Source: Clostridia bacterium
Lineage (GTDB): Bacteria; Bacillota; Clostridia; Oscillospirales; CAG-272
NCBI GenBank assembly: GCA_017623355.1
Contig: JAGAPG010000020.1
Span: 2,762 to 66,761, forward strand
Reading direction: 5' to 3'
Length of the DNA stretch: 64,000 nt
Position 1 is the stretch's first letter. Every line of letters begins with the position of its first letter. The position numbers and the translations under genes are program-made. The notes beneath the pieces are model-generated. The model worked only from the letters and a program-made list of their open reading frames with translations. It ran no database searches and was not told the origin of the DNA. Shown piece after piece: positions 940 to 64,000 of the stretch.

Positions 940-945
940 ACGGCG

Positions 946-7273: not shown

Positions 7274-7293
7274 AATATCTCCTCAAAAATTTT

Positions 7294-11497: not shown

Positions 11498-11504
11498 TTA
11501 GTTA

Positions 11505-11533
11505 TTGACTTTATAAATATATTGTGATAAAAT
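11505..11533 (+). promoter_or_regulatory. sigma-A type promoter for the lipoprotein pair
   Basis: TTGACT, 17-nt spacer, TGaTAAAAT. Confidence 0.6.
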
Positions 11534-11564
11534 TAATTTACAATAAAATATAAGGAATCAAAAA

Positions 11565-12272: not shown

Positions 12273-12301
12273 AAAATTTTAAAATATATGGAGGAAAAAC
12301 A

Positions 12302-13819: not shown

Positions 13820-13833
13820 TTTAAATAAAATGA

Positions 13834-13865
13834 AAACAGTGCTGAATTTCAGCACTGTTTTTTTG
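13834..13865 (+). terminator. intrinsic terminator
   Basis: aaaacagtgctga-attt-tcagcactgtttt followed by a T-run. Confidence 0.85.
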
Positions 13866-13879
13866 CAAATCGCTTTAAT

Positions 13880-14030
13880 TTGAAATTCACTCACGACGGC
13901 GAGGAAAGGCAATGAAGTGAAGAGTGAAGAGTGAAAAGATAAGAGGGACTTCAAGAGAAAATGTGTCTGTAAAATCTAATAAAACAAAATAAAGTAAGGC
14001 TACTCGCCTGCGGTAGCTTGACCGCCCGGG
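13880..14030. repeat. dispersed intergenic repeat family, copy 1
   Basis: Aligns by eye to 18950-19062 and 19100-19215. Core: gt(g/a)tct(g/a)taaaat(c/t)taa(a)t..caaa(a)taaagtaaggctac.cgcctgcgg. Confidence 0.75.
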
Positions 14031-35136: not shown

Positions 35137-35484
35137 TTGCAGCGACAGCGGCGCTTTCAAAAAATGATCGGAGGGAGAAGAATAGACGAAAGAACAGTAA
35201 AAAAGCTTAAAAGGATACTTCTCAAAATAGCAAGCTCAAACGCTAACGATCTGCTTGAATGGTGTAAGAGCGCTTCGCAGGGGGAGCAGAACGCTACGGC
35301 TATGAGCGACGAGCTTGCGCTCAGCGTTTCGTCAATAAAGATGAAATCGTCGAACGGGAATCTCGAATACGAGATAAAGCTCGTTGATAAGCTGAAGGCG
35401 ATAGAGCTTTTGTCGAAGCTTCTCGGCATCTCCGAGGAGAGTGAGGGGGGAGAGCTAACGATAAATTATGACTACCGAGAATAG
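35137..35484 (+). pseudogene. terminase small subunit, 5'-truncated
   Basis: The C-terminal KLVDKLKAIELLSKLLGI is the conserved DKxKALELLGKHLG motif of Terminase_2-type TerS. The N-terminal HTH part is absent and there is no RBS or ATG at the ORF start. Confidence 0.65.
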
Positions 35485-36745
35485 CGTTTTCGTGCCGATG
35501 AATGAAACGTTTCGCGAGTCTAACTCGGTAAGAGCCAGATACAGAGTGGAGTGTGGCTCTGCGGGAAGCGGAAAGAGTGTAAACGTTGCAAGAGATTATA
35601 TAATTAAGCTTTCTGACAAGGCGTATTCGGGAGCAAATTTGCTTTGTGTAAGAAAGACTGAAAGCTCGCATTTTGACAGCACGTACGCGGAGCTTACAAG
35701 AGCTATAAAGGATATTTTCGGAAAGCGGTGGCAGAGGTATTGGGAGCTTTCACGATCACCGTTAAGGATGCGCTGCAGGACTACGGGAAACGAAATAATC
35801 TTTCGCGGAACGAAGGATGACAGCCAAAGAGAGAAGCTGAAATCCATTCAAAGCGCGCAGGGAAAGATAGTGTGGGTGTGGATAGAGGAGGCAACGGAGC
35901 TTGACCCCGGCGATCTTGATATAATAGACGACCGACTTCGTGGCTCGCTTGAGGAAATAAATCCAAGGCTTTACTATCAGATAACGCTCACCTTCAATCC
36001 CGTAAGCGCAAATCATTGGATAAAGAAAAGGTTTTTCGACAAGGCGGACCCTCTTGCATATACTCACAGATCAAATTATCTTCAGAATGCGTTTATAGAC
36101 TCGGAATACCACAAAAGAATGATGCGAAGACGTGAAAACGACCCTGAGGGGTATCGTATTTATGGGCTTGGAGAGTGGGGCGAGAGCGATGGCTTGATCC
36201 TGCCGAAATACGAGGTCAGAGAGCTTGATAAGCGCTTTGAGCATTACGATAGCGTTTATATCGGTCAGGACTTTGGCTACAATCACGCGAACTGTATTTT
36301 AACGGTAGGCTTTCGTGACGGAGATGCTTATGTGCTTGGCGAGCTGTACACAAGAGGACTTGACACCTCGGAGATAATTGAGCTTGCAAAGCGCGCAAAA
36401 GTATCGCAAGCGGTGCCGATGTACTGTGACAGTGCAGAGCCCGACCGCATAAGGACGTGGAAAAAAGCAGGATTTTTCGCCGTTGCCGTTAAAAAAGAGC
36501 CCGGATCTGTCGGCGCGCAGATAGATTATTTAAAGAGCCACAGGCTTTTTATCGACACGTCCTGCGAAAATCTCATACGGGAGATAAGCATGTGGAAGTG
36601 GGAAAGGGATACTGACAGCGGAGAGTATACCGATATTCCCGTTTGCACCTGTGACGATGCGATAGCGGCGCTCCGCTATTCCATAGAGGGTGTAAGAAAA
36701 GGCAGAAGACTCCGCACAATATCAAAAAGCACACTCGGCATATGA
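35468..36745 (+). CDS. terminase large subunit (PBSX-type)
   Basis: Walker A GSAGSGKS, WIEEA (Walker B), and a C-terminal nuclease region DSAEPDRI. Confidence 0.88.
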   Translation: MTTENSVFVPMNETFRESNSVRARYRVECGSAGSGKSVNVARDYIIKLSDKAYSGANLLCVRKTESSHFDSTYAELTRAIKDIFGKRWQRYWELSRSPLRMRCRTTGNEIIFRGTKDDSQREKLKSIQSAQGKIVWVWIEEATELDPGDLDIIDDRLRGSLEEINPRLYYQITLTFNPVSANHWIKKRFFDKADPLAYTHRSNYLQNAFIDSEYHKRMMRRRENDPEGYRIYGLGEWGESDGLILPKYEVRELDKRFEHYDSVYIGQDFGYNHANCILTVGFRDGDAYVLGELYTRGLDTSEIIELAKRAKVSQAVPMYCDSAEPDRIRTWKKAGFFAVAVKKEPGSVGAQIDYLKSHRLFIDTSCENLIREISMWKWERDTDSGEYTDIPVCTCDDAIAALRYSIEGVRKGRRLRTISKSTLGI

Positions 36746-36763
36746 CGGGTGAGAAAGGAAAAA

Positions 36764-38011
36764 ATGACACAGGAACAGATCAAGGAAATTATCGAAAATT
36801 TCAATTCTCAGACACTCCCCAGGCTTAAAAGGCTCAAAAACTATTATTCGGGCAATCACGATATTCTTAATAAAACGAAGGATGCGGGCAAGCCGAACAA
36901 TCAGCTCGTTAATAATTTTTGCAAAAACATCACCGACACGACAGTGGGATATTTTATGGGCACGCCCGTTTGCTATTCCTCGGACAGAGAGGAGCTTATC
37001 GGCAGTATAAGGCTCATAAACGATTATAACGACGAGCAGTTTATAAACAGCCGTCTTTCAAAGGATCTTTCTGTATACGGCGTTGCCTGCGAGCTTGTTT
37101 ATTATGACGAGGATAAGATGATAAGAATAGCTCCGTGCGATGTTTTAAGCACGATACCCGTTTATTCGCCGTCAATAGATAGGGAGCTTAGCGCCGCGAT
37201 AAGAATTTACGAGCTTGAAGACGCCGAGGATGAGGATACCGTAGGGCTTGAGATCTATGACAGTAATCTCGTAAGCTACTATTCGTACAACACCTCAAGC
37301 GGCGAGGCGGTTATGATAAGAAGCGTTCCGCATTATTTTGGGTTAGTGCCGATAAACTTCTATTATAATAACTCCGATAAGACGGGTGATTTTGAGTCGG
37401 TAATGACACTTGTTGACGCGTATAACGAGCTTCAAAGCGAGAGCGTGAACGATTTTGAGCTTTTTGCGGATTCGTATCTTGCGGTTACGGGAATGAACGC
37501 GACAGACGCTGAGGACATAGCGAAGCTGCGTGAAAACAGAGTATTGCTTATTGACGAAGGCGGAGATGCAAAGTGGCTCACAAAGAGCGTGAACGATGCG
37601 TATATTGAAAACCTCAAGAAAAGAATATCATCAGATATCTACCGCTTCTCCGGCTCTGTTGATATGACGGACGATGCAATAGGCGAAAGCGCGTCGGGAG
37701 TGGCGATAAAATACAGACTCCTTAACTTTGAAAACAGAGTTTCGGTTACGGAGAGATATTTTAAGAAATCGCTTATGCGCAGATACGAGATGATATGCAA
37801 TATGCTAAACACTCTCGGAAACGACTACAGCGCGACGGAGATAAGGATAACCTTTACGAGAAATATTCCCGAAAATCCTATTGATAACGCGGATTACGCA
37901 CAGAAGATGGCGGGGGTAGTGTCGAGAAAGACGCTTCTTGAAAGAATACCGTTCGTTGATGACGTGGATAGCGAAATGTCGCGGATAAGAGAAGAAAGCA
38001 TTAATAATTAG
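36764..38011 (+). CDS. portal protein (SPP1 gp6-like)
   Basis: N-terminal R..RLKNYYSGNHDIL, ~415 aa, positioned after terL. Confidence 0.85.
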   Translation: MTQEQIKEIIENFNSQTLPRLKRLKNYYSGNHDILNKTKDAGKPNNQLVNNFCKNITDTTVGYFMGTPVCYSSDREELIGSIRLINDYNDEQFINSRLSKDLSVYGVACELVYYDEDKMIRIAPCDVLSTIPVYSPSIDRELSAAIRIYELEDAEDEDTVGLEIYDSNLVSYYSYNTSSGEAVMIRSVPHYFGLVPINFYYNNSDKTGDFESVMTLVDAYNELQSESVNDFELFADSYLAVTGMNATDAEDIAKLRENRVLLIDEGGDAKWLTKSVNDAYIENLKKRISSDIYRFSGSVDMTDDAIGESASGVAIKYRLLNFENRVSVTERYFKKSLMRRYEMICNMLNTLGNDYSATEIRITFTRNIPENPIDNADYAQKMAGVVSRKTLLERIPFVDDVDSEMSRIREESINN

Positions 38012-38019
38012 GAGGAAAA

Positions 38020-38571
38020 ATGGAGGAAGAAATTTTAAACGAGAAACAAAAAGAGGCTTTGGACACAGATAATGTCGAGGCGAAAAACGCAGATATCGAG
38101 AAAACGGAAGCCTCCGAGGCTGAGCAGGAATTAAAAGAGCCGAGCAAGCCTGACGAGCAAAAAACGACACTCCCTGCGCCGAAAACGGAAAGCAGCGACA
38201 AGCTTGACTCGCTTGATGCGGAAATAAAAAGACTCAAAAGAGAGCTTGACGAGGAGAGAAAAAAGCGCATAGAGGGAGAAAGCAGGCTTTATTGTATGGA
38301 GGCTCTTGAAAAAAGAGGGCTTCCAAGATCGCTTTGCGAGTTTTTGACTGCTCAAAGCAACGATGAAACGGACAAAAGAGTGGAGAGAGTGGCTGAAATT
38401 ATAAAGTCCTCGGTAAACGAGGAAATATCAAAAAGGCTTCAAGGAGTGCCTCAGCCAAGCAAAAGCGCGCCCGTTATGTCAAAGAGCGCGTTTAAAAATC
38501 TCTCACTTGACGAAATGCAGCGCTTATATAAAACTGACAAAACACTTTATATGTCGCTTGCGAAAAAATAA
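38020..38571 (+). CDS. capsid scaffolding protein (DUF4355-like)
   Basis: Acidic coiled-coil N-terminus, the GLPRSLCEFLTAQSNDETDKRV motif, and a position between portal and capsid. Confidence 0.7.
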   Translation: MEEEILNEKQKEALDTDNVEAKNADIEKTEASEAEQELKEPSKPDEQKTTLPAPKTESSDKLDSLDAEIKRLKRELDEERKKRIEGESRLYCMEALEKRGLPRSLCEFLTAQSNDETDKRVERVAEIIKSSVNEEISKRLQGVPQPSKSAPVMSKSAFKNLSLDEMQRLYKTDKTLYMSLAKK

Positions 38572-38591
38572 AATTATGAAAGGATAAAATT

Positions 38592-39662
38592 ATGCATACA
38601 ATTTACGAAAATCAAATTCTTGAAAACAAAATGACCGAGCTTATCGATACTAAGCTCAATACAAGAGCTCTTATGACTCTTGACACATCACTTGCCGAGG
38701 GCGCGGGTCTTCGCAAGGTTATCAACCGCTATACCTACAAGGGAACTGTTGAAAATCTTGAAAAGGGTGCGAAAAACACTGTGAAGGGAACTGTTTCCTT
38801 CGTACCTGAATATTATGATGTTAAGAGATATCAGCAGACCTTTGAATATAACGATATGGATGCTATGAGCGATCCTTATATCGTTGAGGTAGCTATGAGA
38901 GGCGCGGCAAACGAGATCACAAATCAAATCAATAAGGAATACTTCAATGAGCTTTCCAAGATCTCAAGAAGAAGCCATTTTGACGGCGATGCCGTTACAT
39001 ACGCGGATATCGTTGACGCTCTTTCTCTTATAGATGTTGAGGTCGACAAGCAGCTCTTTATCATTATGGGCAGCGAGATGAGAAAGCAGATAAGAAAGGA
39101 CCCTGATTTTGTTGCATCAAAGCAGGGCGAGATCCTTTATACAGGTCAATTCGGTACGCTTTGCGGAATACCCGTTCTCTTTTCAAAGCTCGTTGAGGGC
39201 GTAAAAGCCTACGTTACAAATCAGGATGCGGTGCGCTTCTTTGTAAAGAAGGAAGCCAGCGTTGAGCAGGCAAGAGATATCGAAACTAAGGACAACACCG
39301 TAGTTTACGAGCGTCACGGTCTTATTGCTCTTGTTGACGATACTACATCCTTGCAGATCGGTAAAAACATTCCCGATCTTAAGATATCCGTTAATGAGAA
39401 TTCATCAACCTCAGACGGAATTACTATGGCTAAGGTTACTCCTACAAAATCGAACCCAAGCAATATTGTTTACTATACTTATCAGGTAAGCGGGAAGCCG
39501 TTTTACGGAGATGCAATAAATCAATCCATTTGTGCGCAGCTCTTATCCGACGGTAATATTGCTCAGTTTAATAAGGGTGAGAAGATAGAATTCTTTGAGG
39601 CCGAGCCCAACACGGGTCTTATTGTGGGCTATGCCGAATACACCTTTAAAACGAGCTTGTAA
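38592..39662 (+). CDS. major capsid protein (HK97-fold, N4-gp56-like) with ~90-aa C-terminal extension
   Basis: Assigned by position, size, and N-terminal pattern IYENQILEN....GAGLRKVINRY. The extension starts about residue 265. Confidence 0.7.
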   Translation: MHTIYENQILENKMTELIDTKLNTRALMTLDTSLAEGAGLRKVINRYTYKGTVENLEKGAKNTVKGTVSFVPEYYDVKRYQQTFEYNDMDAMSDPYIVEVAMRGAANEITNQINKEYFNELSKISRRSHFDGDAVTYADIVDALSLIDVEVDKQLFIIMGSEMRKQIRKDPDFVASKQGEILYTGQFGTLCGIPVLFSKLVEGVKAYVTNQDAVRFFVKKEASVEQARDIETKDNTVVYERHGLIALVDDTTSLQIGKNIPDLKISVNENSSTSDGITMAKVTPTKSNPSNIVYYTYQVSGKPFYGDAINQSICAQLLSDGNIAQFNKGEKIEFFEAEPNTGLIVGYAEYTFKTSL

Positions 39663-39677
39663 TGAGGAGTGAGGGAA

Positions 39678-40007
39678 ATGGGATTTAAATCGGACAAAAC
39701 ACAGGACGAAATACTCAAAGAGGTATTGACGCTCCTTTCAATATCCGATAACGAAACGGAGAAAAACGTCGTTTCAAGCATCATTCCAAATGCGTTTCTC
39801 TATGCCTGCGAGTATTGCGGCATAGAGAGCGTGCCCTCGCATCTTCTTATACAGATGACGCTTGAGGATTATTCCAAAATAACCTCAGCCGGACTTACCA
39901 AAAGATCGCTTTCATCGCTTTCCGAGGAATATCTCGATAATTATTCTCCCAAGGTTATGGCTATTCTTGATAAGCTGAGGGGCGAAAAAAGGCTTATATG
40001 TCTGTGA
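39678..40007 (+). CDS. head-tail connector (gp6/QLRG-like)
   Basis: 109 aa. Assigned by position after the capsid gene and the pattern DEILKEVL..IS....E......I.NAFLYACEY. Confidence 0.55.
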   Translation: MGFKSDKTQDEILKEVLTLLSISDNETEKNVVSSIIPNAFLYACEYCGIESVPSHLLIQMTLEDYSKITSAGLTKRSLSSLSEEYLDNYSPKVMAILDKLRGEKRLICL

Positions 40008-40016
40008 GGTGATGCT

Positions 40017-40346
40017 ATGTTAAAAACGAAGAAAAGACCTTACAGGGTATACAGGCTTGAAAAGGTATCGGGGGTTAGCATAGCTAAATTTATCGCAAGC
40101 GTTGGAATATGTGTGGCTATGACCTCTGACAGACGCGATATAGATAACGATGTTAAATGCGTATATCTTAAAAAAAGGTACGCAGCGGTTGCCGATTCGC
40201 ATATTATAAAGGATGGAGATATAATCAGGGACGGCGATAGCTTTATGAGAGTTATCAGTGCGGTGTCATACGGAAACGAGAGCTATTTACATCTTGAAAG
40301 CACAGAGGTCTTCCAAGGAAGCGCGTTTGAATTTGAGGAGGCATAG
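40017..40346 (+). CDS. head closure/head-tail adaptor protein
   Basis: 109 aa; assigned by synteny only. Confidence 0.45.
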   Translation: MLKTKKRPYRVYRLEKVSGVSIAKFIASVGICVAMTSDRRDIDNDVKCVYLKKRYAAVADSHIIKDGDIIRDGDSFMRVISAVSYGNESYLHLESTEVFQGSAFEFEEA

Positions 40347-40347
40347 G

Positions 40348-40692
40348 ATGTTTGACGTTATTTTAAATAAGATCAAGGACGCAGTTGACAGAAGCGTGCT
40401 TGACAGACTCGAAAAAGTAAACGAGGAGTGCGTTATCGTCAACATCGAGCCGCAAAGCTATGACGGAACAGTATGCGATTCTACCGTAAAGGTGGTTTGC
40501 GTGTTCAAAAGCTATGAGGCATCACTCGATTGCTTTGACAAGGTGTGTGATGCGCTTTATTCGCTTCCTGCCGAGGATGGCGAGGTGCTCGATACTGTTC
40601 TTCAAAGCACGTTGATAAGATACGATACCGTATCGGGAATGACAAGACTTTTGGGAGAGTTTTCGGTATTTACGCGCGGAGAGGAGGAATAA
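40348..40692 (+). CDS. neck/tail-completion-like protein
   Basis: ATG at 40348 follows GAGGAGG; 114 aa; assigned by synteny only. Confidence 0.4.
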   Translation: MFDVILNKIKDAVDRSVLDRLEKVNEECVIVNIEPQSYDGTVCDSTVKVVCVFKSYEASLDCFDKVCDALYSLPAEDGEVLDTVLQSTLIRYDTVSGMTRLLGEFSVFTRGEEE

Positions 40693-40694
40693 GC

Positions 40695-41471
40695 TTGAAA
40701 ATAACTAACGGCAGAGAGACTTTGGTTTTCGGAGAAGGGGTAAGACTTACGTCGTTTTCGGAGAAGGGCTTTTGGGTAGACAACAATCTTAACACTGTGG
40801 TTGACGGCTTTGGCTATCACAAGGAGAATGCTAAGGTCGGCGCGAAGCGAATGATTTTGAAGGGCTACATAGAAAAGGATATTGAAGCGAATAAGCGGCT
40901 TTTGAACAGAATTTGCGATCCCAGCGTTGCGTTTTGCCGGATATACGATGGGAATTATGTGCTTGAGGGAAGGCTTTACAAGGGCATAGAGTATTCGGAT
41001 AGGAAAAACGACAAGCTCAAGCTGCTTGCCTTTACAGCGGAATTTTTTTGCCCCGATCCTGCATGGAAGGATACGGAGGAAAGAACGGAAATGCTCTATT
41101 CCTGCGGAAGCACCTCTTCGGGACAGGAGCCTCTCGTTTTACAGAACGACGGTGACAGAGAGGTCGGCTTTAAGCTTCGTATCGTTTTATCTTTGTCCTG
41201 CAAAAAAATAGAAATATCCTGCGATGACAAGAAAATAATTCTTTCGGGATCGTTTTCGGTCGGACAAAATATCTATATAGATACAAGAAAGGGCGAATGT
41301 ACCGTCAATATAACGCCTGTAAATTCAACCTCTCTTTCAAACGGAATGAGATATGTTTTGGCAGGCTCTGAATTTTTTAAGCTTAAGGTAGGGACAAGCT
41401 CTATCGGATATGAGTTTAACGGCGGAGCAGGGCATCTTGTGGCGACATATACACAGGAGTATTTGAGATGA
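40695..41471 (+). CDS. distal tail protein (Dit, Sipho_tail family)
   Basis: TTG start after GGAGG. Dit-like pattern L.GYI, FFCPDPAWK, LQNDGDREVGFKL.I and IYIDTRKG. Confidence 0.65.
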   Translation: MKITNGRETLVFGEGVRLTSFSEKGFWVDNNLNTVVDGFGYHKENAKVGAKRMILKGYIEKDIEANKRLLNRICDPSVAFCRIYDGNYVLEGRLYKGIEYSDRKNDKLKLLAFTAEFFCPDPAWKDTEERTEMLYSCGSTSSGQEPLVLQNDGDREVGFKLRIVLSLSCKKIEISCDDKKIILSGSFSVGQNIYIDTRKGECTVNITPVNSTSLSNGMRYVLAGSEFFKLKVGTSSIGYEFNGGAGHLVATYTQEYLR

Positions 41472-42457
41472 TGGATATAAAAATATACAATCCTGCCTTT
41501 GATCTTGAGGGAGTTATTGATTTCGTGAAGGAATATGATTATACCGAGGAGTTCAACGATTATTCGGAGTTTCATATGAGAGTGCCGAGCTCTGATAAGA
41601 ACAGAGAGCTTTTTATAACGGATAATTATATTGCCTTTTCGGACAAGCTTTTTCTTATTGATCGCGTAGTCGCCTCGGAAAATGAGATATATGCAAGCGG
41701 AGTAAGCATTTTTGCGCTTTTCAGGGATGTTCTTATAGAAGAACCGCAGGTTTTCAAGACCAATCCTTACGATACAGTCGCGGAGCTTGCCAAGCTTATC
41801 AGCATTCCGTATGCCACCTATGAGGTGTATACGATGCTTTGGAACAGCGAAATCACTTACAGTCAAATAAACTGTGTAAATACGAGCGTTTACACCCAGA
41901 TAAGAAACATTTGCAATATTTACGGCTTCGGCTTTCAGATGACGTTTTCTCCTGTTTCTAAAAGGATAATGTTTCAGATTATGCCGAAGCAGAAAAGGTA
42001 CAGCGACGGCGGAAGCTTTGCTTACGCAATAAGCGATATGAGAAATATGTACGAGCGTTGCTCCGTTGAAAGCGATATGTCGAGCTATAAAAACTACGCT
42101 CATATTCCTTACGGATATATTGATGATGTATATACCTACGAAAATGTCGATCATCGAGTAAGTCCGACGAACGAGAGAAAGCGCGCGATAAGCGTCAGTG
42201 TTCCTGCTATGCTTTCGTCAAGGGATCTTTCCGCTTCGTTAAGATATCTTGGCGAGATTGCGCTCTCTCATCACAGGGAAATAATCAGATTTACCGTGGA
42301 GCTTTTAAAGGATGTCGATGCTTCGCCCGGGGATGTGTGCGATTTTGAGTGTAAAAGAGACGGATATTTTTGTCACGCGCTCGTAAAAAGAATAACGAGA
42401 GGAGAGAAGGACGGCGCTGCTTTTGTCAGGGTGGTGCTTGATAAGGAGCATGAATGA
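41468..42457 (+). CDS. Siphovirus Gp37-like minor structural protein
   Basis: The N-terminal MDIKIYNPAFDLEGVIDF...Y.EEFNDYSEFHM pattern is typical of Sipho_Gp37 proteins, and it follows Dit. Confidence 0.55.
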   Translation: MMDIKIYNPAFDLEGVIDFVKEYDYTEEFNDYSEFHMRVPSSDKNRELFITDNYIAFSDKLFLIDRVVASENEIYASGVSIFALFRDVLIEEPQVFKTNPYDTVAELAKLISIPYATYEVYTMLWNSEITYSQINCVNTSVYTQIRNICNIYGFGFQMTFSPVSKRIMFQIMPKQKRYSDGGSFAYAISDMRNMYERCSVESDMSSYKNYAHIPYGYIDDVYTYENVDHRVSPTNERKRAISVSVPAMLSSRDLSASLRYLGEIALSHHREIIRFTVELLKDVDASPGDVCDFECKRDGYFCHALVKRITRGEKDGAAFVRVVLDKEHE

Positions 42458-42710
42458 TATATCTAAGGAGCTTTGCGAGGAAAGAGCTCAAAGAACCGAA
42501 AAGCGTCTCGATAAGCATTCGTCTGCTATTGACGAGTTGTGCGCGTGCTCTGTAAAGCTTACCGAGATGATGAGAATACACAACGAAAGGATAGACGATC
42601 ACGAATCGCGCTTGGGCTCGCTTGAAAAGCGTCCCGGAGATATCGTGGGAAGGGTGATTGATGCGCTTATCTCGGCGGTGACGGCGGCTATCGTTTGTAT
42701 GATACTTTAG
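42450..42710 (+). CDS. XhlA-like lysis-associated membrane protein
   Basis: ~86 aa with an N-terminal coiled coil (RLDKH...HNERIDDHESRLGSLEK) and a single C-terminal TM segment, as in PBSX XhlA. Confidence 0.55.
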   Translation: MNDISKELCEERAQRTEKRLDKHSSAIDELCACSVKLTEMMRIHNERIDDHESRLGSLEKRPGDIVGRVIDALISAVTAAIVCMIL

Positions 42711-46972: not shown

Positions 46973-47188
46973 GTGTATAATTAAATAGACAAATTTTCTA
47001 CACTTTTTATCATAGCCGAGGTTGACGTTACGTCAACTTTTGAGTATGTGATTATAAACAAAAAGAAACTTTATAGGCGCAGAAGGCTTTTCTAACGCGT
47101 ACTTGTGTATCAAGAGGGGAAACGTACAAGCGAGGATAACGCCGATCATTTTCAGCGTTCTTTTTGTTTTCTCCTTTTTTTAAAAGTG

Positions 47189-47217
47189 TTGACTTTTTTT
47201 AAAATACAGTGTATAAT
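47189..47217 (+). promoter_or_regulatory. consensus promoter of small RNA copy A
   Basis: TTGACT, 17-nt spacer, TATAAT. The same arrangement precedes copy B. Confidence 0.7.
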
Positions 47218-47221
47218 CTTA

Positions 47222-47300
47222 TCAAGAATTCAACCAGACGCCGGCAGAAATTGCACGGAAATCCGGAGGTAACTCCAAATTTCGGTTGAATTCTTTTTTT
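47222..47300 (+). ncRNA. candidate structured small RNA, copy A (three-way junction, P1 doubles as terminator stem)
   Basis: P1 aagaattcaacc/ggttgaattctt; P2 ccggca/tgcAcgg with loop gaaat; P3 ggag-gtaa-ctcc; U-tract. Covaries with copy B at 58253-58328. Confidence 0.6.
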
Positions 47301-47491
47301 ATTTTTTACCATGCTTTTTTGCGTATTGTTTATTGAATTTCTTTATAGCTTAAAGCGTTTTTGACGGTCGGTTGCTTTATCTGCGGATGCGCCGTAATGC
47401 TTTTGCTACCATAATAATCCCTTTAAGATAATAATATAGCGCAAAAGCGTTGCGTTCGATAAGAATAAAAGCAAGTTTTAATAAAAAAGCA

Positions 47492-58159: not shown

Positions 58160-58221
58160 CCTCAAGCGCTATATAATTTGCTCGTAATATCAGAGCTTTA
58201 GGCAATGATTATGAAAAAATA

Positions 58222-58249
58222 TTGACTTTTTAAAAATATGGCGTATAAT
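58222..58249 (+). promoter_or_regulatory. consensus promoter of small RNA copy B
   Basis: TTGACT, 16-nt spacer, TATAAT. Confidence 0.7.
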
Positions 58250-58252
58250 ATA

Positions 58253-58328
58253 TCAAGAATTCAGCCCACGCCTGTAGAAATTACAGGAACCATGGAGGTA
58301 ACTCCAAATCTGGCTGAATTCTTTTTTA
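58253..58328 (+). ncRNA. candidate structured small RNA, copy B
   Basis: P1 aagaattcagcc/ggctgaattctt; P2 cctgta/tacagg with loop gaaat; P3 ggag-gtaa-ctcc; U-tract. Confidence 0.6.
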
Positions 58329-58403
58329 TTTTCACCATATTTTTCAAGTTAAAAAGTATATAAAAATTGTATATAAAGTGAGCAAAAATCCTTATGAATA
58401 AAG

Positions 58404-58453
58404 AAAAAAGACCGTATAAATACCTACTTTGTGAGTAGTTTTTATACAGTCTT
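58404..58453 (-). terminator. intrinsic terminator of the minus-strand operon
   Basis: The minus strand reads gactgtataaa...tttatacggtc, with an inner ctact/agtag stem, followed by tttttt. Confidence 0.75.
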
Positions 58454-58483
58454 TCTGGCTAATAACCCTAATTTTGATACAAA

Positions 58484-58720
58484 TTAAGCAGCATCAAAAA
58501 CTCTTATTTCATCTAAAAAGGCGTCCATATAGCCATGCAATTCCGCACTACGGCTTTGCAATTCTTGCAAGGCGGAAGGAGTGATGCTGTGGTTTAATAA
58601 GTCTCTTAATTTCTTTACGGACATTCTGCCAGGAGAATCTTCCGAACCGAACAAGTTTGTTAATAAAGCCTTATCAAACGTATATCCAGCAAATGACAAT
58701 GCAAAGGGGACTTGTGTCAT
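58484..58720 (-). CDS. small hypothetical protein (78 aa) carrying an R-x4-H motif
   Basis: ATG at 58720 lies 2 nt after the TAG of the upstream ORF. RDLLNH is encoded at 58589-58606. Confidence 0.45.
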   Translation of the reverse strand: MTQVPFALSFAGYTFDKALLTNLFGSEDSPGRMSVKKLRDLLNHSITPSALQELQSRSAELHGYMDAFLDEIRVFDAA

Positions 58721-58722
58721 CA

Positions 58723-58941
58723 CTACTTTAAAGTAATCACTATACTGTCCAGTTTTTTGTATTGATGTTCTCTCAAAATAAATTTATATGTAATTTCACA
58801 AATCGAGAACTTATCTTTGAAACTGTCAATTTCGGCTTTAACTTTTTTATCGTTAAATATTGTCTCAAGACGAAGCATTTCTGCACGAGCATCATTTCTT
58901 AACCGTAATTGTTCTTGCGGGTTTATTTTTGGGGTAGCCAT
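58723..58941 (-). CDS. small hypothetical protein (72 aa)
   Basis: ATG at 58941 lies 7 nt after AAGGAG. Predicted to be all-helical. Confidence 0.45.
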   Translation of the reverse strand: MATPKINPQEQLRLRNDARAEMLRLETIFNDKKVKAEIDSFKDKFSICEITYKFILREHQYKKLDSIVITLK

Positions 58942-58960
58942 TTTGCATCTCCTTTGCCAT

Positions 58961-59476
58961 TTACAATGTGAAACCAAGTGTACGCATCATATAGAAAAGA
59001 TTTTCTGTTTTGACACCGAACACATTGGCAACATCGGGGATTTTGGCGTTCTTGCTCGGGCTACGGGGATTGAGCCCTTTGTTCGGCACTTCAAATGTGA
59101 TTATGGTATATCCTTTTGCTTTCGCTGTAGATATTAACCACGGGTCAGCTACAGTACCTTTTGCCCATTCAGCCAAAGCGGAAGGCTTGTAACAAGCATT
59201 GCTTTGAATATGACCTAAGACTGCTCCGTAATGTGCTAATATGGTTGGATCTCTTCGGTCAACATAGGTGCCTATTGTTAAAGCCTCTATCCAATCTTTC
59301 AAACTATCCTCACCCTGGAGTATTTCGTCTTTGACCAAATCAAGAATAGCAATATCTCCATTTTGGATATGCTCCTCCATTTGGCTCCAAAAGCTTTCAG
59401 CAAAATCAAACGGATAATACATCAAATGCGGAGTGATAAGGGAGTTGGCATCAATCAAGAAAATTTCTTTACTCAT
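58961..59476 (-). CDS. DUF4411 (PIN-like nuclease fold) protein
   Basis: The N-terminal IFLIDANSLITP, then ADPWLIS and IPDVANVFGV, are characteristic of DUF4411. ATGA overlap with the upstream peptidase gene. Confidence 0.7.
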   Translation of the reverse strand: MSKEIFLIDANSLITPHLMYYPFDFAESFWSQMEEHIQNGDIAILDLVKDEILQGEDSLKDWIEALTIGTYVDRRDPTILAHYGAVLGHIQSNACYKPSALAEWAKGTVADPWLISTAKAKGYTIITFEVPNKGLNPRSPSKNAKIPDVANVFGVKTENLFYMMRTLGFTL

Positions 59477-60648
59477 TTCAAGCCACCTCCTACCGTTTCT
59501 GCCAAATTACTAAAAGTAGAGCGGTTTGTATTTGTAAGACGGAAAGCATCCGAATATAATGTGCGACCGGCTTTAACACTACCTACGAGCATATGGAAGA
59601 ATCTTTTATCAATCCTACTAGCTGCCGTGCGATAGAAATCACCGCCACCTTCTCCGCGCTCCTTCTTTCTCTTGCGAGCCTCATTGTATAATGTAATTGC
59701 TAATTGCGCAATTTTTTTATACACATCATAAGAAATAAGGTTTCCGTCGTATGCCTTTCGGGCAATTACCGTAATACCACATTTGAATTTATCAGATAAG
59801 AGCCTAATGTTCTCTTCGTGATTATCCTTGTCTTCAAGAGCGTTCCACGCATCCACAAAAGCTTGATGAGGAACTAATATTTCGGCAGCCACAGCATTGC
59901 AAAGTGTTTCAGCTTTCTTTACTTGTGTTCCGGTACTATCGCGATCATTAAATAAGCTATTTTCCCCAATGCATAGGTGAGTAAACTCATGAAGCAAGGA
60001 AAACAGTTTTCCGTTGGTGGAATCATTAGAGTTGATAAAAATAAGCGGAGCATATTCATCTACCACCGCAAAAGCGCGGAACTCATTAATATCTAGCGGA
60101 CGGTGGGTATTATTTCCTACGATTCCGCTCATCATTACGATAGTTCCTACGTTGCTCATTGCCGTTCTAATATAGTTGAAAGATTCCTCGGCGGTTTTGC
60201 AGGCGGTATACCAATCAATTTTTATATCTAATATTTCTCTTACTCGCTGTGCAAACTTCATAAAATTGGATTGAGATTTAAGTTCTCCAACGAAAGTCAA
60301 AGGAGTACTTCCTTCAGAAATCAAATAATCTCGGACCCAATCTTGAACTTGCCCCATATCGTGCATTGTATCCATTAAATTTCGGCTAGGTGTGTCCAAG
60401 GAGGCACTGTCCACCGTGCGAAATTCAATTAAAGACATATCTTCGGCGGGAGGGGTTTGCAAAAAGAAATATCCCAAAGGAATGCCCGTGGCTTTGCTCA
60501 CTTTTTCAACTTGATTGAAAGTTGGCGTTTTTTTGCCGTGATGCCAGGACTCCAAGTATTCAACTATTTGATAATTTAGGGTTTCGGGCTGTATTTGACC
60601 TAGTACCCAATTCAGTATTTCAGGGGAAATACTAACATTTACTTGCAT
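59473..60648 (-). CDS. HTH (XRE-like) + ImmA/IrrE family zinc metallopeptidase
   Basis: HEFTHL (HExxH), an N-terminal HTH-like region (TPTFNQVEKVSKATGIPLGYF), and COG2856-type architecture. ATG at 60648 lies 7 nt after GGAGG. Confidence 0.8.
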   Translation of the reverse strand: MQVNVSISPEILNWVLGQIQPETLNYQIVEYLESWHHGKKTPTFNQVEKVSKATGIPLGYFFLQTPPAEDMSLIEFRTVDSASLDTPSRNLMDTMHDMGQVQDWVRDYLISEGSTPLTFVGELKSQSNFMKFAQRVREILDIKIDWYTACKTAEESFNYIRTAMSNVGTIVMMSGIVGNNTHRPLDINEFRAFAVVDEYAPLIFINSNDSTNGKLFSLLHEFTHLCIGENSLFNDRDSTGTQVKKAETLCNAVAAEILVPHQAFVDAWNALEDKDNHEENIRLLSDKFKCGITVIARKAYDGNLISYDVYKKIAQLAITLYNEARKRKKERGEGGGDFYRTAASRIDKRFFHMLVGSVKAGRTLYSDAFRLTNTNRSTFSNLAETVGGGLK

Positions 60649-60686
60649 CACTTCACCTCCTATTACAAGTATTTATTGTTTGATAA

Positions 60687-61124
60687 TTATTCATTGGAAC
60701 AACTATCAGTATTTTTTATTCTCAAGGTAACCTTAAAATTCTCTTCCGGGAACAGCGAATCGTGTTCACGGCATCTTGCTACCTCTGCCTTTATAACGCT
60801 CTCAACGGCGTGTTTGCCGTATTCGTCAAGGCGTAAATATGCCATAATCGTTTCGTAAAAACTTTCCTCGGCTTCCCATATGCCGAGTTGCTCTATATCC
60901 TCTTCCGTTATCTTAGGCGAAGAAGGGTCATTGGACGAGCCGAGAATATAATCTATCCGTCTATCGAATATGTCTGAAAGCGCATCAAGCGTTTCAAAGT
61001 TTGGCTCTCGTTTGCCGATCTCCCACATTGCAACCGTTCCCTTGGAAACGCCCAAAAGTTCCGCAAGCTGCACCTGGGTCATATTCTTTTCTTTACGTAA
61101 TTCTTTCAATCTGTGAGCAAACAT
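60687..61124 (-). CDS. XRE-family HTH transcriptional repressor (CI/ImmR-like)
   Basis: RLKELRKEKNMTQVQLAELLGVSKGTVAMWEIGKREP. ATG at 61124 follows GAGGTG. Confidence 0.85.
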   Translation of the reverse strand: MFAHRLKELRKEKNMTQVQLAELLGVSKGTVAMWEIGKREPNFETLDALSDIFDRRIDYILGSSNDPSSPKITEEDIEQLGIWEAEESFYETIMAYLRLDEYGKHAVESVIKAEVARCREHDSLFPEENFKVTLRIKNTDSCSNE

Positions 61125-61217
61125 TTCATCACCTCGCATAAATTATATCACGAATCGTGAGTATTGTCAAGTGTTTTCTAACGCTTTGATGGTGCTTGCG
61201 ATATTTTTTTGAAGAAA

Positions 61218-61272
61218 AAGATAACTTTCTGTGAGATTTGCTATTGACAAAGATAACTGAATGTTGTATAAT
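61218..61272 (+). promoter_or_regulatory. consensus promoter with repeated aagataact boxes (candidate operators) between the divergent regulators
   Basis: TTGACA (61244-61249), 17-nt spacer, TATAAT (61267-61272). aagataact occurs at 61218-61226 and 61249-61257. Confidence 0.65.
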
Positions 61273-61305
61273 ATACTTGTAAATCTCACGAAAGGAGAGA
61301 ATTTT

Positions 61306-61494
61306 ATGAAAAATGAGACAAAACCGTCGATGATGACCATCAAGCAGATAGCAAAAACAGGGCTGATGCCCGAAAATGCTCTCCGTCAACTTTTGAAGGA
61401 AGGCAAGCTGCCTGTTGTCTATATCGGCAAAAAGGCTCTCATTAACTATTCCAAGTTATGTGAACTTCTCAATCGGCTCGGTGATACCGAATGA
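61306..61494 (+). CDS. small excisionase/AlpA-like helix-turn-helix DNA-binding protein
   Basis: 62 aa. MTIKQIAKTGLMPENALRQLLKEGKLP.VYIGKKALI fits the excisionase-type HTH_17 pattern. AAAGGAGAG RBS. Confidence 0.6.
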   Translation: MKNETKPSMMTIKQIAKTGLMPENALRQLLKEGKLPVVYIGKKALINYSKLCELLNRLGDTE

Positions 61495-61527
61495 CCGATG
61501 CAAAATTTATGGAAAGGAGGAAACGGA

Positions 61528-63825
61528 ATGAGAACTCAATACACTAATCTGCCGAGCCTGTTAAAGAAGGAAGGCTTGTTTTGCTTATGGCAATACGAAA
61601 CTCGCGATGGCAAAAAGACCAAGGTTCCGTATTGTATCCGTGGTTATCGTGCTGACCCCAGAAACAAAAATACATTTTCAAAGTTTGACCAAGTCATTAG
61701 CCTTGCCAACGGATATGACGGAATCGGCATCGGTGTTTTTGATGACATCTGCGCCGTAGATATCGACCATTGTGTAGAAGACGGAGTGCTTTCAGAAATG
61801 GCTGACGATATCGTAAAAATGATGGACTCCTATACCGAGTATAGTCCCTCCGGTACTGGTGTGCGTATCTTTTTCAAGGCAAGCGGTCTGTCCTATGACA
61901 AAGAGCGTTACTACGTCAATAATCGCAAATTCGGTCTTGAAATCTATGTTTCCGGTTATACAAACAAATTTGTAACCGCTACAGGGAACGTGCTTATTGA
62001 CCGAAATATCGAAGACCGAACCGAGGCTCTTTTGCTCGTACTTGAAAAATATATGGTCAAGCCGACACAGTTATATACTCGCCGTGAGGATGTTCCCGGT
62101 AGCTTTCTTTCAGACGAGTCCATAATTGCCAAAGCAAGCGCATCCAAGCAGGGTGAAAAGTTCTCGGCTTTATGGTATGGCGATGTCTCTGCATACGGAA
62201 GCCAAAGCGAAGCCGACCTTGCCCTTTGCTCCATTCTTGCATTTTGGTGTGGCGGTGATATTGAGCAAATGGATAGACTCTTCCGTCAATCTGATCTTAT
62301 GCGAGAAAAATGGGAGAGGGAGGATTATAGAATGAACACATTGAACCGAGCCGTGGCAATGACCAAGGAATTTTATAAGCCTCTCGGTCGAACCGCTCCG
62401 GCAGCGGAGTTTAATGATATTTCCATATTTCTTGATGAAGCCGCTCCCGAACGCAATGACCGTTACCCTTGGACGGACATTGGCGGCGGACGGCTATTTG
62501 CGGATTGCTTTGAGAGCATTGCCAGGTATGTCCCCGAGAAGAAGAGCTGGTACTGTTACAAAGACGGCGTGTGGTCTACCGACAGCGGTGCGCTCCGCAC
62601 GATGGAACTTTGTAAGGCGTTAGCGGATGCATTAATCGTATATGCGGTATCCATTCATGATGAACGCCAAAGACAAGAGTTTATGAAATACTGCACCAAA
62701 TGGCAGACGCGCCGTACGCGAGAAACGCTACTCAAAGATGCCCAAGGCGTACACCCCATATCCCTCTCGGAATTTGATTGCGACCCTTACATCTTTAATT
62801 GTAAGAACGGTACATTACATCTTGATACGATGGCTTTTACAGAACATCGCGCAGAAGACCGCTTGACCAAGATCTCAAATGTGGAATATGACCCTTCCGC
62901 ATATAGTTCTCGGTTTGAAAGCTTTGTATCCGAAATTATGAGCGGAGATGTCGACAAAGCGAGATTTCTCCAAAAGGCTCTCGGCTATGGTATCAGCGGA
63001 GATACGCGCTACGAGTGTATGTTCATAATGTACGGCGCAACCACCCGTAACGGAAAAGGCACCTTGTGCGAAAGCGTTCTGAAGGTTCTCGGCAATTATG
63101 GTTGTACCGCAAGACCGGAAACTTTAAGTATCAACGCCAACAGCAACAGCCAGACCCCGAGCGAAGATATCGCAAGGCTTGCAGGGGTACGCTTTGCCAA
63201 CATTTCCGAGCCTGGTAAGGGACTCCTTCTTAACGGAGCAAAGGTCAAAAATATGACGGGCAATGATACCATCAACGCTCGTTTCCTTCACGAAAACAGC
63301 TTTGACTTCACTCCACAATTCAAGCTCTACATCAATACCAACTACCTTCCCGTCATCAATGATATGACTCTTTTCAGCAGCGGGCGTGTAGTCATTATTC
63401 CTTTTGAAAGGCACTTTGAAGAAGCCGAGCAGGACAAGACTTTGAAAACGGAATTCTCAAAACCGGAAGTTCAAAGCGCAATCCTCAATTGGCTTGTAGA
63501 CGGCTATCGTATGCTGACGAAAGAAGGATTGTCGCAACCGCAAGCGGTCAAGGAAGCAACCGCTTCTTACGAACACGAAAGTGATAAGATTGCTATGTTT
63601 GCCGAGGACAATCTTATTGAGGATAAACGCTCCGAGGTTCGTACCGCCGAAGTCTACAGCCGATACAAGGAGTGGTGTATGGACAACGGACACCGTGCTG
63701 AAAGCATGAAGAACTTCAAGCAAGGACTTATGACGCAAGGCTCGGTTGTCCGCAAGCGACCGAGGGGCGGTGGTAGCGAAACCACAATGCTCATCGGTTT
63801 CAAACTCGTCAGCGACTTCCTTTAA
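61528..63825 (+). CDS. bifunctional prim-pol primase / P4-D5-type SF3 helicase
   Basis: N-terminal prim-pol (GIGIGVF..AVDIDHC), a PriCT-like SQSEADLALCSILAFW, Walker A GATTRNGKGT, and a D5_N-like middle region. Confidence 0.85.
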   Translation: MRTQYTNLPSLLKKEGLFCLWQYETRDGKKTKVPYCIRGYRADPRNKNTFSKFDQVISLANGYDGIGIGVFDDICAVDIDHCVEDGVLSEMADDIVKMMDSYTEYSPSGTGVRIFFKASGLSYDKERYYVNNRKFGLEIYVSGYTNKFVTATGNVLIDRNIEDRTEALLLVLEKYMVKPTQLYTRREDVPGSFLSDESIIAKASASKQGEKFSALWYGDVSAYGSQSEADLALCSILAFWCGGDIEQMDRLFRQSDLMREKWEREDYRMNTLNRAVAMTKEFYKPLGRTAPAAEFNDISIFLDEAAPERNDRYPWTDIGGGRLFADCFESIARYVPEKKSWYCYKDGVWSTDSGALRTMELCKALADALIVYAVSIHDERQRQEFMKYCTKWQTRRTRETLLKDAQGVHPISLSEFDCDPYIFNCKNGTLHLDTMAFTEHRAEDRLTKISNVEYDPSAYSSRFESFVSEIMSGDVDKARFLQKALGYGISGDTRYECMFIMYGATTRNGKGTLCESVLKVLGNYGCTARPETLSINANSNSQTPSEDIARLAGVRFANISEPGKGLLLNGAKVKNMTGNDTINARFLHENSFDFTPQFKLYINTNYLPVINDMTLFSSGRVVIIPFERHFEEAEQDKTLKTEFSKPEVQSAILNWLVDGYRMLTKEGLSQPQAVKEATASYEHESDKIAMFAEDNLIEDKRSEVRTAEVYSRYKEWCMDNGHRAESMKNFKQGLMTQGSVVRKRPRGGGSETTMLIGFKLVSDFL

Positions 63826-63828
63826 CAC

Positions 63829-63921
63829 AATGTCGCAACTTGTCGCAGGTTCTATAGGTTGTTTTGAAAAAACGCTCTTTTATAGAAATGACATATTTTA
63901 CTTGCGACAATCTGCGACAGA
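63829..63921. repeat. iteron cluster / candidate replication origin
   Basis: tgtcgca at 63831 and 63841 (10-bp phasing). The inverted tgcgaca lies at 63903 and 63913 (10-bp phasing). They flank an AT-rich 55-bp spacer with ctata..tatag. Confidence 0.55.
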
Positions 63922-64000
63922 CGTCTTTTACAAGACAATTGTGACCTAAGGGGCGGGTCAAATCTGCGGGCACAAAATAGTGTCCAACGGGTGGGCAGCC

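Follow-up and report, generated by a model that had tools for sequence, protein, structure and literature searches.

A tRNA-integrated island with its own primase-helicase and a lone HK97-type capsid gene: a possible phage satellite of gut Clostridia

Introduction

The right end of a 64,000-nucleotide stretch of DNA from a Clostridia bacterium of the Oscillospirales (GenBank assembly GCA_017623355.1, contig JAGAPG010000020.1, positions 2,762 to 66,761; the whole stretch is called the window here) holds, at 58338..64000, a leftward repressor gene and a rightward primase-helicase gene that diverge from a common promoter region, and the window ends shortly after the latter. The question raised by this locus is what kind of mobile element it represents, and how such an element might move. 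A sequence-only reading confined to the window had taken it for a discrete element resembling the phage-inducible chromosomal islands (PICIs), integrase-less as far as visible and controlled by an immR-immA switch like that of ICEBs1. The contig (C35) reaches 8,681 nt beyond the window end, in a genome of 39 contigs that is 77% complete, and the extended locus of the island, designated L002, takes in this DNA; the window-equivalent coordinate is the L002 coordinate + 57238.

The feature at 58338..64000 is the left two-fifths (5.5 kb) of an intact mobile island. That this 14,214-bp island is real, intact and integrated beside a tRNA gene is hardly in doubt, and it very probably belongs to a large, apparently undescribed family of elements bearing a capsid gene, which is spread in Clostridia and relatives. 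On balance the island probably lives as a helper-dependent satellite that supplies its own capsid protein alone and borrows the rest of the particle.

Results

Extent and insertion site

The ends of the island are defined by the following sites.

58456..58483, strandless: attL, consisting of a 4-nt core TGGC (58456-58459, also in attR) and the left terminal arm (58460-58483)
L002 15409-15435: right arm
L002 15436-15439: attR core TGGC, forming the 3' end of a tRNA on the minus strand; the contig ends at L002 15443

The island measures 14,214 bp between the TGGC cores that both junctions carry, and a sister island (L003), from an Oscillospiraceae metagenome-assembled genome representing a different host, measures 13,845 bp. 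The two arms are near-symmetric: the left arm terminates in the 14-mer TAATTTTGATACAA, which is the exact reverse complement of a 14-mer in the right arm, and the remainder matches in part; a near-dyad arm shape is the usual look of serine-integrase attP sites. The right island end adjoins the 3' end of tRNA-Ser(GCT), as seen in L003 on the opposite strand, and the window contig ends eight bases into the tRNA-Ser(GCT) sequence known from L003. On the left side a 33-nt block (58452-58483) is the only DNA common to the window island and L003 (97%). A hairpin followed by a T-run precedes these 33 nt in the window island, in L003 and in the independent run X5, the hairpin being different in each; we read it as the tRNA's own terminator, moved away by the insertion, so that the island is placed between the 3' end of tRNA-Ser and the terminator of that tRNA. 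Five other family members likewise end beside a minus-strand tRNA.

The rightmost gene, encoding a DUF6809 protein, is counted as part of the island because it is 96% identical in the genome of L003, whereas the neighbours beyond it are much less alike (past DUF6809 the L003 contig has 11 genes with a homologue in the window genome, 24-76% identical). No empty site could be read because gene order downstream of the glycosidase gene on the left flank is not conserved, as found in a left-flank search of 40 relatives in which the DNA beyond was read in 8 genomes. At the end of C35 no overlapping contig and no further copy of the tRNA were recognised in the assembly; contig C8 was considered as a continuation and rejected, as it begins with an unrelated partial gene. 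The locus is thus an island in the ~10-15 kb range with a specific attachment site at the 3' end of tRNA-Ser and its own integrases, which are two serine recombinases and not of the usual tyrosine type.

Two repeats were noted in the host flanks. A second copy of a promoter/small RNA/terminator unit (47182-47318) stands at 58215-58344, with 79% identity across 137 nt. Being flanked by the glycosidase gene on one side and the displaced tRNA terminator on the other, it stops short of attL and does not belong to the island. A non-coding repeat of ~190 nt with short GTGAAATA...TATTTCAC-type hairpins and a strong terminator occurs at C7:837-1020 and C7:1758-1950, with a 73-79% identical copy at L003 31-225, which is host DNA to the left of the sister island.

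The capsid gene and its neighbours beyond the window

The 8.7 kb past the window hold three small genes, a capsid gene, two large serine recombinase (LSR) genes, a ribbon-helix-helix (RHH) gene, a C5 methyltransferase gene, a restriction enzyme gene and the DUF6809 gene.

L002 6837-7118, +: o121, 93 aa from the start backed by a ribosome-binding site (RBS)
L002 7118-7408: o96
L002 7405-7686: o93, a zinc ribbon protein, just upstream of the capsid gene
L002 7706-8641: lone HK97 major capsid gene, 311 aa, ATG with GGAGG 9 nt upstream
L002 8762-10120 and 10113-11693: two overlapping LSR genes (LSR1, LSR2), 2.0-4.9 kb past the window end
L002 11759-14892: right cargo, RHH and C5 methyltransferase genes (+) and a putative restriction enzyme gene (-)
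L002 14942-15337: DUF6809 gene

The capsid protein matches PF05065 (2.5e-57, 194.9 bits against a cut-off of 24.2) and TIGR01554 (214.8 bits against a cut-off of 27.5), the latter over model positions 85-385 only, with positions 1-84 unmatched. Its AlphaFold2 (AF2) model has the HK97 fold with a pLDDT of 88.7, and the Foldseek matches listed for this model are almost all capsid proteins of phages, gene transfer agents (GTAs) and satellites; the list is headed by those of the Rhodobacter GTA, of phage Mycofy1 and of the capsid-forming PICI (cf-PICI) EcCI2 (9gyi, 1.7e-16), with HK97 itself lower. The gene, the most unusual trait of the island and out of sight of the sequence-only reading, is intact, with dN/dS values of 0.17 against L003 and 0.13 against locus L013. 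In an element otherwise resembling the PICIs, which have no structural genes, an intact HK97 capsid gene is therefore under purifying selection, and it stands alone: among open reading frames (ORFs) of at least 50 aa, scanned against Pfam, PHROGs and NCBIfam, no portal, protease, terminase, tail or lysis gene was found in the 8.7 kb, and of the full head and packaging set of the cf-PICIs only the capsid protein is present. An ordinary prophage downstream, which the sequence-only reading had named as the case that would overturn it, was likewise absent from the 8.7 kb to the contig end, in which all of these ORFs were scanned.

The capsid protein lacks a full-length N-terminal scaffolding (delta) region, with ~52 aa before the mature domain when counted from the RBS-backed start. 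This shortening is a property of the family: 44-79 residues precede the mature domain in 39/46 satellite rows of the capsid alignment, as compared with 128-137 in 42/45 phage rows, and the values of 98-116 in five satellite rows were measured from the longest possible ORF. Phage capsid relatives are 384-408 aa long in 43/45 rows. In the capsid tree 45 rows (39 satellite and 6 unassigned) are separated from the phages by a branch with an SH-aLRT value of 100, and all 42 phage rows stand on the phage side; judged from these sequences, the satellite capsid proteins appear to form their own clade beside Heliusvirales-like gut phages.

Both LSRs exceed the Pfam cut-offs for the Resolvase, Recombinase and zinc ribbon domains, match phrog_95 (3e-117 and 4e-151) and have no DUF4368 domain; the term integrase-less thus described an effect of the window edge. 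Their best NCBIfam name is CcrB (2e-37, 129 bits against a cut-off of 900), with CcrA at 61-78 bits (cut-off 700), so that both remain far under the thresholds of the two recombinases of the staphylococcal cassette chromosome (SCC). Selection against amino-acid change extends to nearly the whole island, dN/dS against L003 being 0.03-0.17 for 9/10 island genes, and no island gene is broken.

Homologues of o121, o96 and o93 occur in 22, 9 and 29 loci, respectively (the window island included), none of them a phage locus; o93 was found in 8/400 species representatives of the class (its own genome included), each of a different genus. The AF2 model of o121 is good (pLDDT 81.9). Foldseek against PDB returned nothing for it at E <= 0.001, VIA-align gave a best Z of 5.5 (the PARP1 WGR domain, with AP2/WRKY-like sheets), which is inside the stated noise range of that tool, and an ESM Atlas search of o121 and o93 returned unnamed clusters only. 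Complex prediction for the capsid protein with o93 scored 0.01 against a mark of 0.32, which is no evidence either way. The genes for the primase, o121, the capsid protein and the recombinases have contigs from RNA libraries (X17, 90-97% alike) lying on them, though DNA may be present in libraries of this kind.

Regulatory switch and left cargo

Within the window the leftward genes and the switch are arranged as follows.

60687-61139, -: XRE/HTH_3 repressor, 150 aa, a helix-turn-helix (HTH) domain (HTH_3 Pfam, 8.7e-18) with a C-terminal domain of ~85 aa of no assigned function
59473-60651, -: HTH and Peptidase_M78 protein, RmrA-like, 392 aa (PF06114, 1.3e-11)
58961-59476, -: DUF4411 protein, 171 aa (PF14367, 7e-39), with a 4-nt overlap with the stop of the upstream gene
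58723-58977, -: small cargo ORF, 84 aa, absent from L003
58484-58723, -: small cargo ORF, 79 aa, absent from L003
61142..61272: divergent switch region with two perfect promoters and candidate operators

The 122-nt gap between the repressor gene and the first rightward gene contains two perfect 12/12 TTGACA-17-TATAAT sites, one per direction, and these are the sole 12/12 promoters among 42 promoter-like sites in 14.5 kb. The promoter of the rightward operon (+, 61244-61272) confirms the consensus promoter that had been proposed there; the second, on the minus strand (61170-61142), serves the XRE gene and has a TG extension. Candidate operators were read from the sequence as the inverted repeats GTGAGATTT / AAATCTCAC around the plus-strand promoter and the palindrome TCACGAATCGTGA within the minus-strand promoter. 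The repressor is 98.6% identical in L003 and 71-75% identical in L009/L010, with a dN/dS of 0.115.

The gene that follows the repressor does not bear out the analogy with immR-immA. Its M78 protein has an HTH-like N-terminal region of its own and resembles RmrA over nearly its full length (PADLOC RmrA at 5.8e-13, residues 35-316 on profile positions 38-296/384, with 13 RmrA models matched), and its match to the NCBIfam spr1629 repressor/antitoxin (4.7e-10) is far under the cut-off. RmrA is the antitoxin of the RosmerTA defence system. Where an ImmR would have a conserved cognate ImmA, the locus thus has an RmrA-like HTH fusion whose cargo block L003 does not carry; the protein is not regarded as a core ImmA because it is RmrA-like and because it has been swapped out in L003 beside a 98.6%-identical repressor. 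The possibility that it is a diverged orthologue of the 399-aa protein that occupies this position in L003 was rejected, the two having no BLASTP similarity.

The adjacent DUF4411 gene is likewise missing from L003 and present in run X5. Its product is presumably PIN-like, as the sequence-only reading had labelled it; it matches no PADLOC model, and the neighbouring M78 protein matches RmrA models at 5.8e-13 and weaker. To judge from gene order and profile matches, DUF4411 is a candidate toxin partner of the RmrA-like protein, and the two may best be read as a RosmerTA-like toxin-antitoxin or defence pair and not as the protease of the repressor. The two small cargo ORFs had zero matches in Pfam, PHROGs, PADLOC and NCBIfam. 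The DUF4411 gene and these two ORFs do stand where ICEBs1 has int, as had been remarked, and the place is a cargo slot, the integrases lying downstream.

Replication module and non-coding sites

Rightward from the switch the island continues with its replication genes.

61261-61494, +: small HTH protein, excisionase/AlpA-like regulator, 77 aa, first gene of the rightward operon
61528-63825, +: archaeo-eukaryotic primase (AEP)-type prim-pol with NrS-1-type helix-bundle domain (HBD) and D5/P4-type superfamily 3 (SF3) helicase, 765 aa (775 aa from ATG 61498)
63831..63919: putative replication origin, repeat-flanked AT-rich DNA directly after the primase stop
63920..64000: first part of a conserved non-coding stretch, the island extending past the window
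L002 6784-6801: conserved hairpin motif, 18 nt

Of the Xis-like HTH protein that had been proposed, the 77-aa gene itself is present, while its family matches are weak (phrog_66 at 7e-4; TIGR01764 at 3.8e-4, under its cut-off). The corresponding proteins of L033, L038 and L047 give HTH_17 matches of 2.7e-7, 1.6e-10 and 2.9e-5, and the gene itself has a dN/dS of 0.027. The primase-helicase (dN/dS 0.08) contains NrS1-pol HBD, D5_N, DUF5906 and Pox_D5 domains, matches the phrog_1829 primase at 3e-158 and scores 230.6 bits with the P4-family primase TIGR01613 (cut-off 108.7). Sequence matches in PDB to 7ola 'DNA primase' (4.2e-37, residues 8-271), to NrS-1-type 'Primase' chains (~1e-23) and to C962R of African swine fever virus (ASFV; residues 414-761) divide the protein into a prim-pol of NrS-1 and 7ola type in the first ~290 residues and a helicase of D5/P4/ASFV-C962R type in the last ~350.

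In the putative origin the sequence TGTCGCA occurs twice, 10 nt apart, at 63831-63847 and its complement TGCGACA twice at 63903-63919, with ~55 nt of AT-rich DNA between the pairs. The 8-mer TTGTCGCA is found 5 times in 15.4 kb as compared with 0.59 expected, a count reached in 0/200 shuffles. The origin is identical in L003 and L005, and loci L013, L016 and L017, of which the primases are 53-64% identical, have the same layout with another repeat (GGCAG-type); an origin co-evolving with its initiator would look like this. The locus combines a divergent repressor/activator switch, its own primase-helicase and an adjacent putative origin, and the PICI-like element proposed for it is discrete in this sense; profile searches and repeat counts also place the XRE, M78, DUF4411 and HTH proteins, the two small ORFs, the primase-helicase and the iterons where the sequence-only reading had located them.

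Between the origin and o121 a non-coding stretch (L002 6700-6836, that is, window 63938-64000 and the next 74 nt) has been kept though the flanking genes have diverged. Its 18-nt hairpin motif is restricted to satellite-type loci (14/176 loci), and run X5 has a different sequence in place of the 100 nt at L002 6681-6781. The stretch is a candidate packaging or late-control site.

Core and cargo

Comparison with L003 separates a core from its cargo. In nucleotide sequence the two islands are 93% identical across the 8,208 bp that stretch from the repressor gene to that of LSR2, and outside this they have in common only 33 nt at the left extreme and 544 nt at the right one. The 8.2-kb core consists of the XRE repressor, the divergent promoters, the HTH protein, the primase-helicase, the putative origin, the three small genes, the capsid gene and the two LSRs. 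The left slot holds the M78, DUF4411 and two small genes in the window island and genes for a 169-aa, a radical-SAM and a 399-aa protein in L003; the right slot holds a type II restriction-modification (methyltransferase-endonuclease) pair in the window island, another pair in L003 and 2,560 other letters in run X5. Run X5 retains the left cargo of the window island while its right cargo differs. These sequence comparisons indicate two independent swap-in cargo slots with defence-type genes, one on each flank of the core, and according to PADLOC the cargo is of the defence type at both ends in the window island and in L003. Hotspots of P4 and of PICIs likewise hold defence cargo, according to the available text of PMC9122126. 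In the left cargo of L003 (337-2829) the 399-aa and radical-SAM proteins match the PADLOC candidate system PDC-M30 (A at 9.8e-18, B at 7.5e-5).

The wider family

A primase search of species-representative genomes gave 67 loci, in 24/67 of which a capsid-gene homologue stands beside the primase, downstream of it in 23 of the 24 and upstream in L029. Pfam scans of 16 capsid-bearing loci found one or more HTH regulators, the primase-helicase, 1-3 small ORFs, the capsid gene and an integrase in constant order, and no other virion gene. A capsid search of IMG/VR gave 80 loci, comprising 29 of satellite type, 44 phages with TerL, portal or protease genes by the capsid gene, and 7 too short to tell. 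The integrase is an LSR pair in the window island, L003, L048 and L029; a TnpW with a TnpX-like LSR, followed by housekeeping genes, in L038, L040, L047, L055, L065 and L177; a tyrosine integrase on the left in L007; and a Tn916-type Xis and Int on the right in L011 and L012. From gene content, the family appears to be one in which the integrase type varies and the set of primase-helicase, small ORFs and lone capsid gene is constant. In the complete chromosome G166 an element of ~13 kb lies between housekeeping genes, with type III restriction-modification cargo and no other phage gene.

Departures from this pattern were also noted. In L178 (G396:C1, a complete chromosome) the capsid gene is frameshifted over two frames and the primase is truncated (8270-9188 and 11385-12041), the TnpX-like recombinase of this decayed member being intact. 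L009 has four LSR genes in a row and a SHOCT protein (1595-7179) upstream of the repressor/HTH/primase core, and the 7.7 kb of sequence available downstream gave no sign of a capsid gene.

No published description of such elements was found in the full-text literature, the coverage of which leaves out subscription journals and supplements. Cultured carriers among the loci are Anaerobium acetethylicum GluBS11, Selenomonas sp. F0473 and Clostridiales oral taxon 876 F0540, and because they exist the satellite idea is testable.

Links to phages

Among named phages the closest relative is Acutalibacteraceae phage NatCom_11578 (Ca. Heliusvirales, 58.7 kb), which has a capsid protein of 400 aa and an annotated run of a 533-aa, a 452-aa and a 246-aa protein, the 400-aa major head protein and the head-tail adaptor Ad1; by order and size we read the first three as TerL, portal and protease. 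The satellite L105 encodes a head-tail adaptor 82% identical over 102/103 aa to NatCom_11578 Ad1. A Terminase_4 small subunit (TerS) is present in the satellites L012, L103, L104 and L119, and that of L012 shares 48-54% identity with TerS from phage loci L133 and L147. To the extent that shared genes tell of it, these point to contact with Heliusvirales-like phages, and they are of the kind that satellites need for piracy. The window island itself has neither the small terminase nor the Ad1 adaptor. The lineage of the nearest phage relatives is reported as ubiquitous in human gut viromes in the available text of PMC11283538.

The window contains a second set of head genes, and the sequence-only reading had asked whether the satellite and this 35-43 kb module interact. 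The module was tried as a helper and rejected, having no similarity to or shared lineage with the island; its capsid protein is unrelated to that of the island (BLASTP E 0.31) and of the scaffold-dependent type, which speaks against such an interplay. The module itself (35137-42710) encodes a large terminase, portal, scaffold, capsid protein (phrog_544), head-tail adaptor, Dit and a minor tail protein, with no tape-measure or tail-tube match at E<=1e-5. Oscillospiraceae are cited as GTA producers in the available text of 10.64898/2026.07.08.737213, and the module could be a GTA-like cluster.

Discussion

Mode of life of the island

If the island is a satellite, the following course of events would account for its genes. 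The repressor would hold the rightward operon off until a signal lifts repression; the signal would probably be a helper-phage protein, because no conserved cognate protease exists. The serine recombinases would then excise the island, and the primase-helicase would replicate it from the adjacent origin. The island capsid protein, without 50-90 of the scaffolding residues of its phage kin, would co-assemble with the portal, protease, terminase and tail of the helper into capsids sized for ~14 kb, as against the 52-64 kb of the helper. The likely helpers are Heliusvirales-like siphophages of gut Clostridia. This specific proposal, in which a capsid protein with a cut-down scaffold replaces that of the helper and sets a small size while portal, protease, terminase and tail come from Heliusvirales-like phages, is put forward tentatively, as somewhat less secure than the satellite life as such. 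Equally tentative is the view that the elements form an undescribed satellite class, widespread in gut Clostridia, of which the two end slots ferry defence systems between hosts.

Several observations weigh against a satellite life or against parts of this scheme. In the window genome, 77% complete, no PF05065 capsid gene besides that of the island was found, nor any TerL, portal or protease of Heliusvirales-like kind, and in 4/5 other carrier genomes the element's own capsid gene is the sole PF05065 match. The window island lacks a small terminase, and no pac or cos site was recognised in it. The assembled contigs (contigs, not reads) of public runs showed neither excision nor a circular junction or empty site, and island depth equals flank depth in two source runs (11.5 vs 10.6-11.8 and 13.5 vs 13.1-14.7). 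A joint of positions 913 to 14964 in an X2 contig was considered as an excision junction and rejected, since it has 24 letters on one side and no att fit; it is taken as a repeat artefact. A listing in IMG/VR or a 'Bacteriophage sp.' record (MT838964, UNVERIFIED) is not proof of encapsidation. The capsid tree is a quick maximum-likelihood (ML) tree and not the product of a finished careful search, its phage rows were retrieved with patterns from this capsid protein and are thus a biased sample, and four satellite-type loci (L011, L012, L048 and L029) stand on its phage side. That a shortened scaffolding region gives smaller capsids is a step that we infer.

The rival that takes most from these points is a defence island, in which the shortened capsid protein would be a dominant-negative subunit or decoy that poisons the assembly of related phages, with rare movement by excision and generalised transduction or by other means. 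The defence-type genes in both cargo slots fit it, as do the missing scaffolding region, the lack of a terminase or portal gene in the island and the failure to find a resident helper in the window genome or in 4/5 other carriers. We nevertheless hold it unlikely, since an inducible switch, a replicase with its own origin and integrases under strong purifying selection would be superfluous for a static defence island, since some relatives also encode packaging and particle functions in the form of a small terminase or a head-tail adaptor, and since interference and piracy do not exclude each other in known satellites. Further from the evidence, and rather improbable, is an SCC-like replicative cassette unrelated to phage transfer, in which the LSRs and primase-helicase would move or amplify cargo and the capsid gene would be co-opted or a neutral passenger. 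A primase-helicase upstream of two LSRs is the layout of SCCmec, the tandem LSRs have CcrB as their best NCBIfam name (2e-37), and equal depth of island and flanks is as expected from such a cassette; set against this, the CcrB score of 129 bits is far under the 900-bit cut-off, and retention of the capsid gene and small ORFs across every integrase type under purifying selection is unlike a passenger gene.

Two further explanations are very improbable. All core genes have phage relatives and L178 is visibly decayed (frameshifted capsid gene, truncated primase), as would suit a decaying prophage remnant made of the lysogeny and replication arm of an ordinary phage and one surviving head gene; the recurrence of one minimal gene set across dozens of loci of different families, the intact att ends and unbroken genes of the island, the deep clade formed by the capsid proteins and an N-terminal shortening that is consistent across the family, not random, all speak against decay. 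The order of an XRE repressor and an M78 peptidase-domain protein on the same strand had likewise suggested an ICEBs1-like or mobilisable element under SOS-responsive control of the ImmR/ImmA type, transferred by conjugation with its own or borrowed machinery. Pfam, PHROGs and NCBIfam scans of the island ORFs found no relaxase, coupling protein or type IV secretion family, and the cargo block that encodes the M78 protein, an RmrA-like fusion, is missing from a sister island with the same repressor. A helper-dependent satellite with its own capsid protein therefore remains the favoured reading. The family occurs in hard-to-culture gut Clostridia; some of the small 'viral' contigs of gut metagenomes could be due to it, and it could account for movement of restriction-modification and toxin-antitoxin defence genes.

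Comparison with known systems

Among elements that are not phage satellites, Tn4451/Tn4453-type elements have TnpX, a large serine recombinase, with TnpW, and several family members (L039, L040, L047, L055, L177 and others) resemble them in having a TnpW-like protein and an LSR with DUF4368 at the right end; the window island differs in its two LSRs without DUF4368, and no scanned member has a Mob/TnpZ gene. SCCmec with ccrAB and Cch/CCPol is like the island in its two tandem LSRs downstream of a self-loading primase/helicase and in its variable flanking cargo, and unlike it in that SCC elements are not known to have a capsid gene or such a repressor switch; as CcrA and CcrB are matched only distantly in the island, the SCC resemblance is one of layout only. 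In its available sections, a survey of prim-pol genes on integrated elements describes them generally and not in this architecture (Kazlauskas et al. 2018, PMC5862659).

The satellites offer closer parallels. PICIs, the SaPIs (pathogenicity islands of Staphylococcus aureus) included, are like the window island in size (14.2 kb), fixed att site, divergent switch, a primase-helicase followed by an iteron-type origin, and defence cargo; unlike it they are defined without structural genes, and they redirect helper capsids by proteins of the CpmAB, Ccm, TerS or Ppi type, none of which was found in the window island. P4-like satellites have in common with it the P4-family primase C-terminal domain (above cut-off for TIGR01613), a genome of ~11-14 kb and defence hotspots, and differ in that homologues of Sid, Psu, Delta and cos were not detected in the island (Pfam, PHROGs); P4 remodels the capsid protein of its helper from outside, whereas the window island would replace it. 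The cf-PICIs such as EcCI2 are likewise small integrated islands with an HK97-fold protein of their own, a replication module and a switch, and they use tyrosine recombinases where the window island uses serine recombinases. Besides the capsid protein they encode protease, portal, connectors, TerS, TerL and HNH, according to the available text of PMC10690885, PMC10085698 and 10.1101/2022.09.08.507074. The Streptomyces satellites MulchRoom and MiniFlayer carry their own capsid gene within a full head module (TerS, TerL, portal, scaffold, adaptor), again as given in the available text of PMC10690885; being without replication genes, they are the reverse of the window island.

Known satellites thus either have no capsid protein and remodel that of the helper (P4, SaPIs, PLE) or bring a whole head (cf-PICIs, the Streptomyces satellites). 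An element that brings the capsid protein only, with its scaffold region shortened, would if true represent an intermediate strategy between the two, and would provide a natural experiment on how the N-terminal scaffolding region sets the size of HK97-type capsids.

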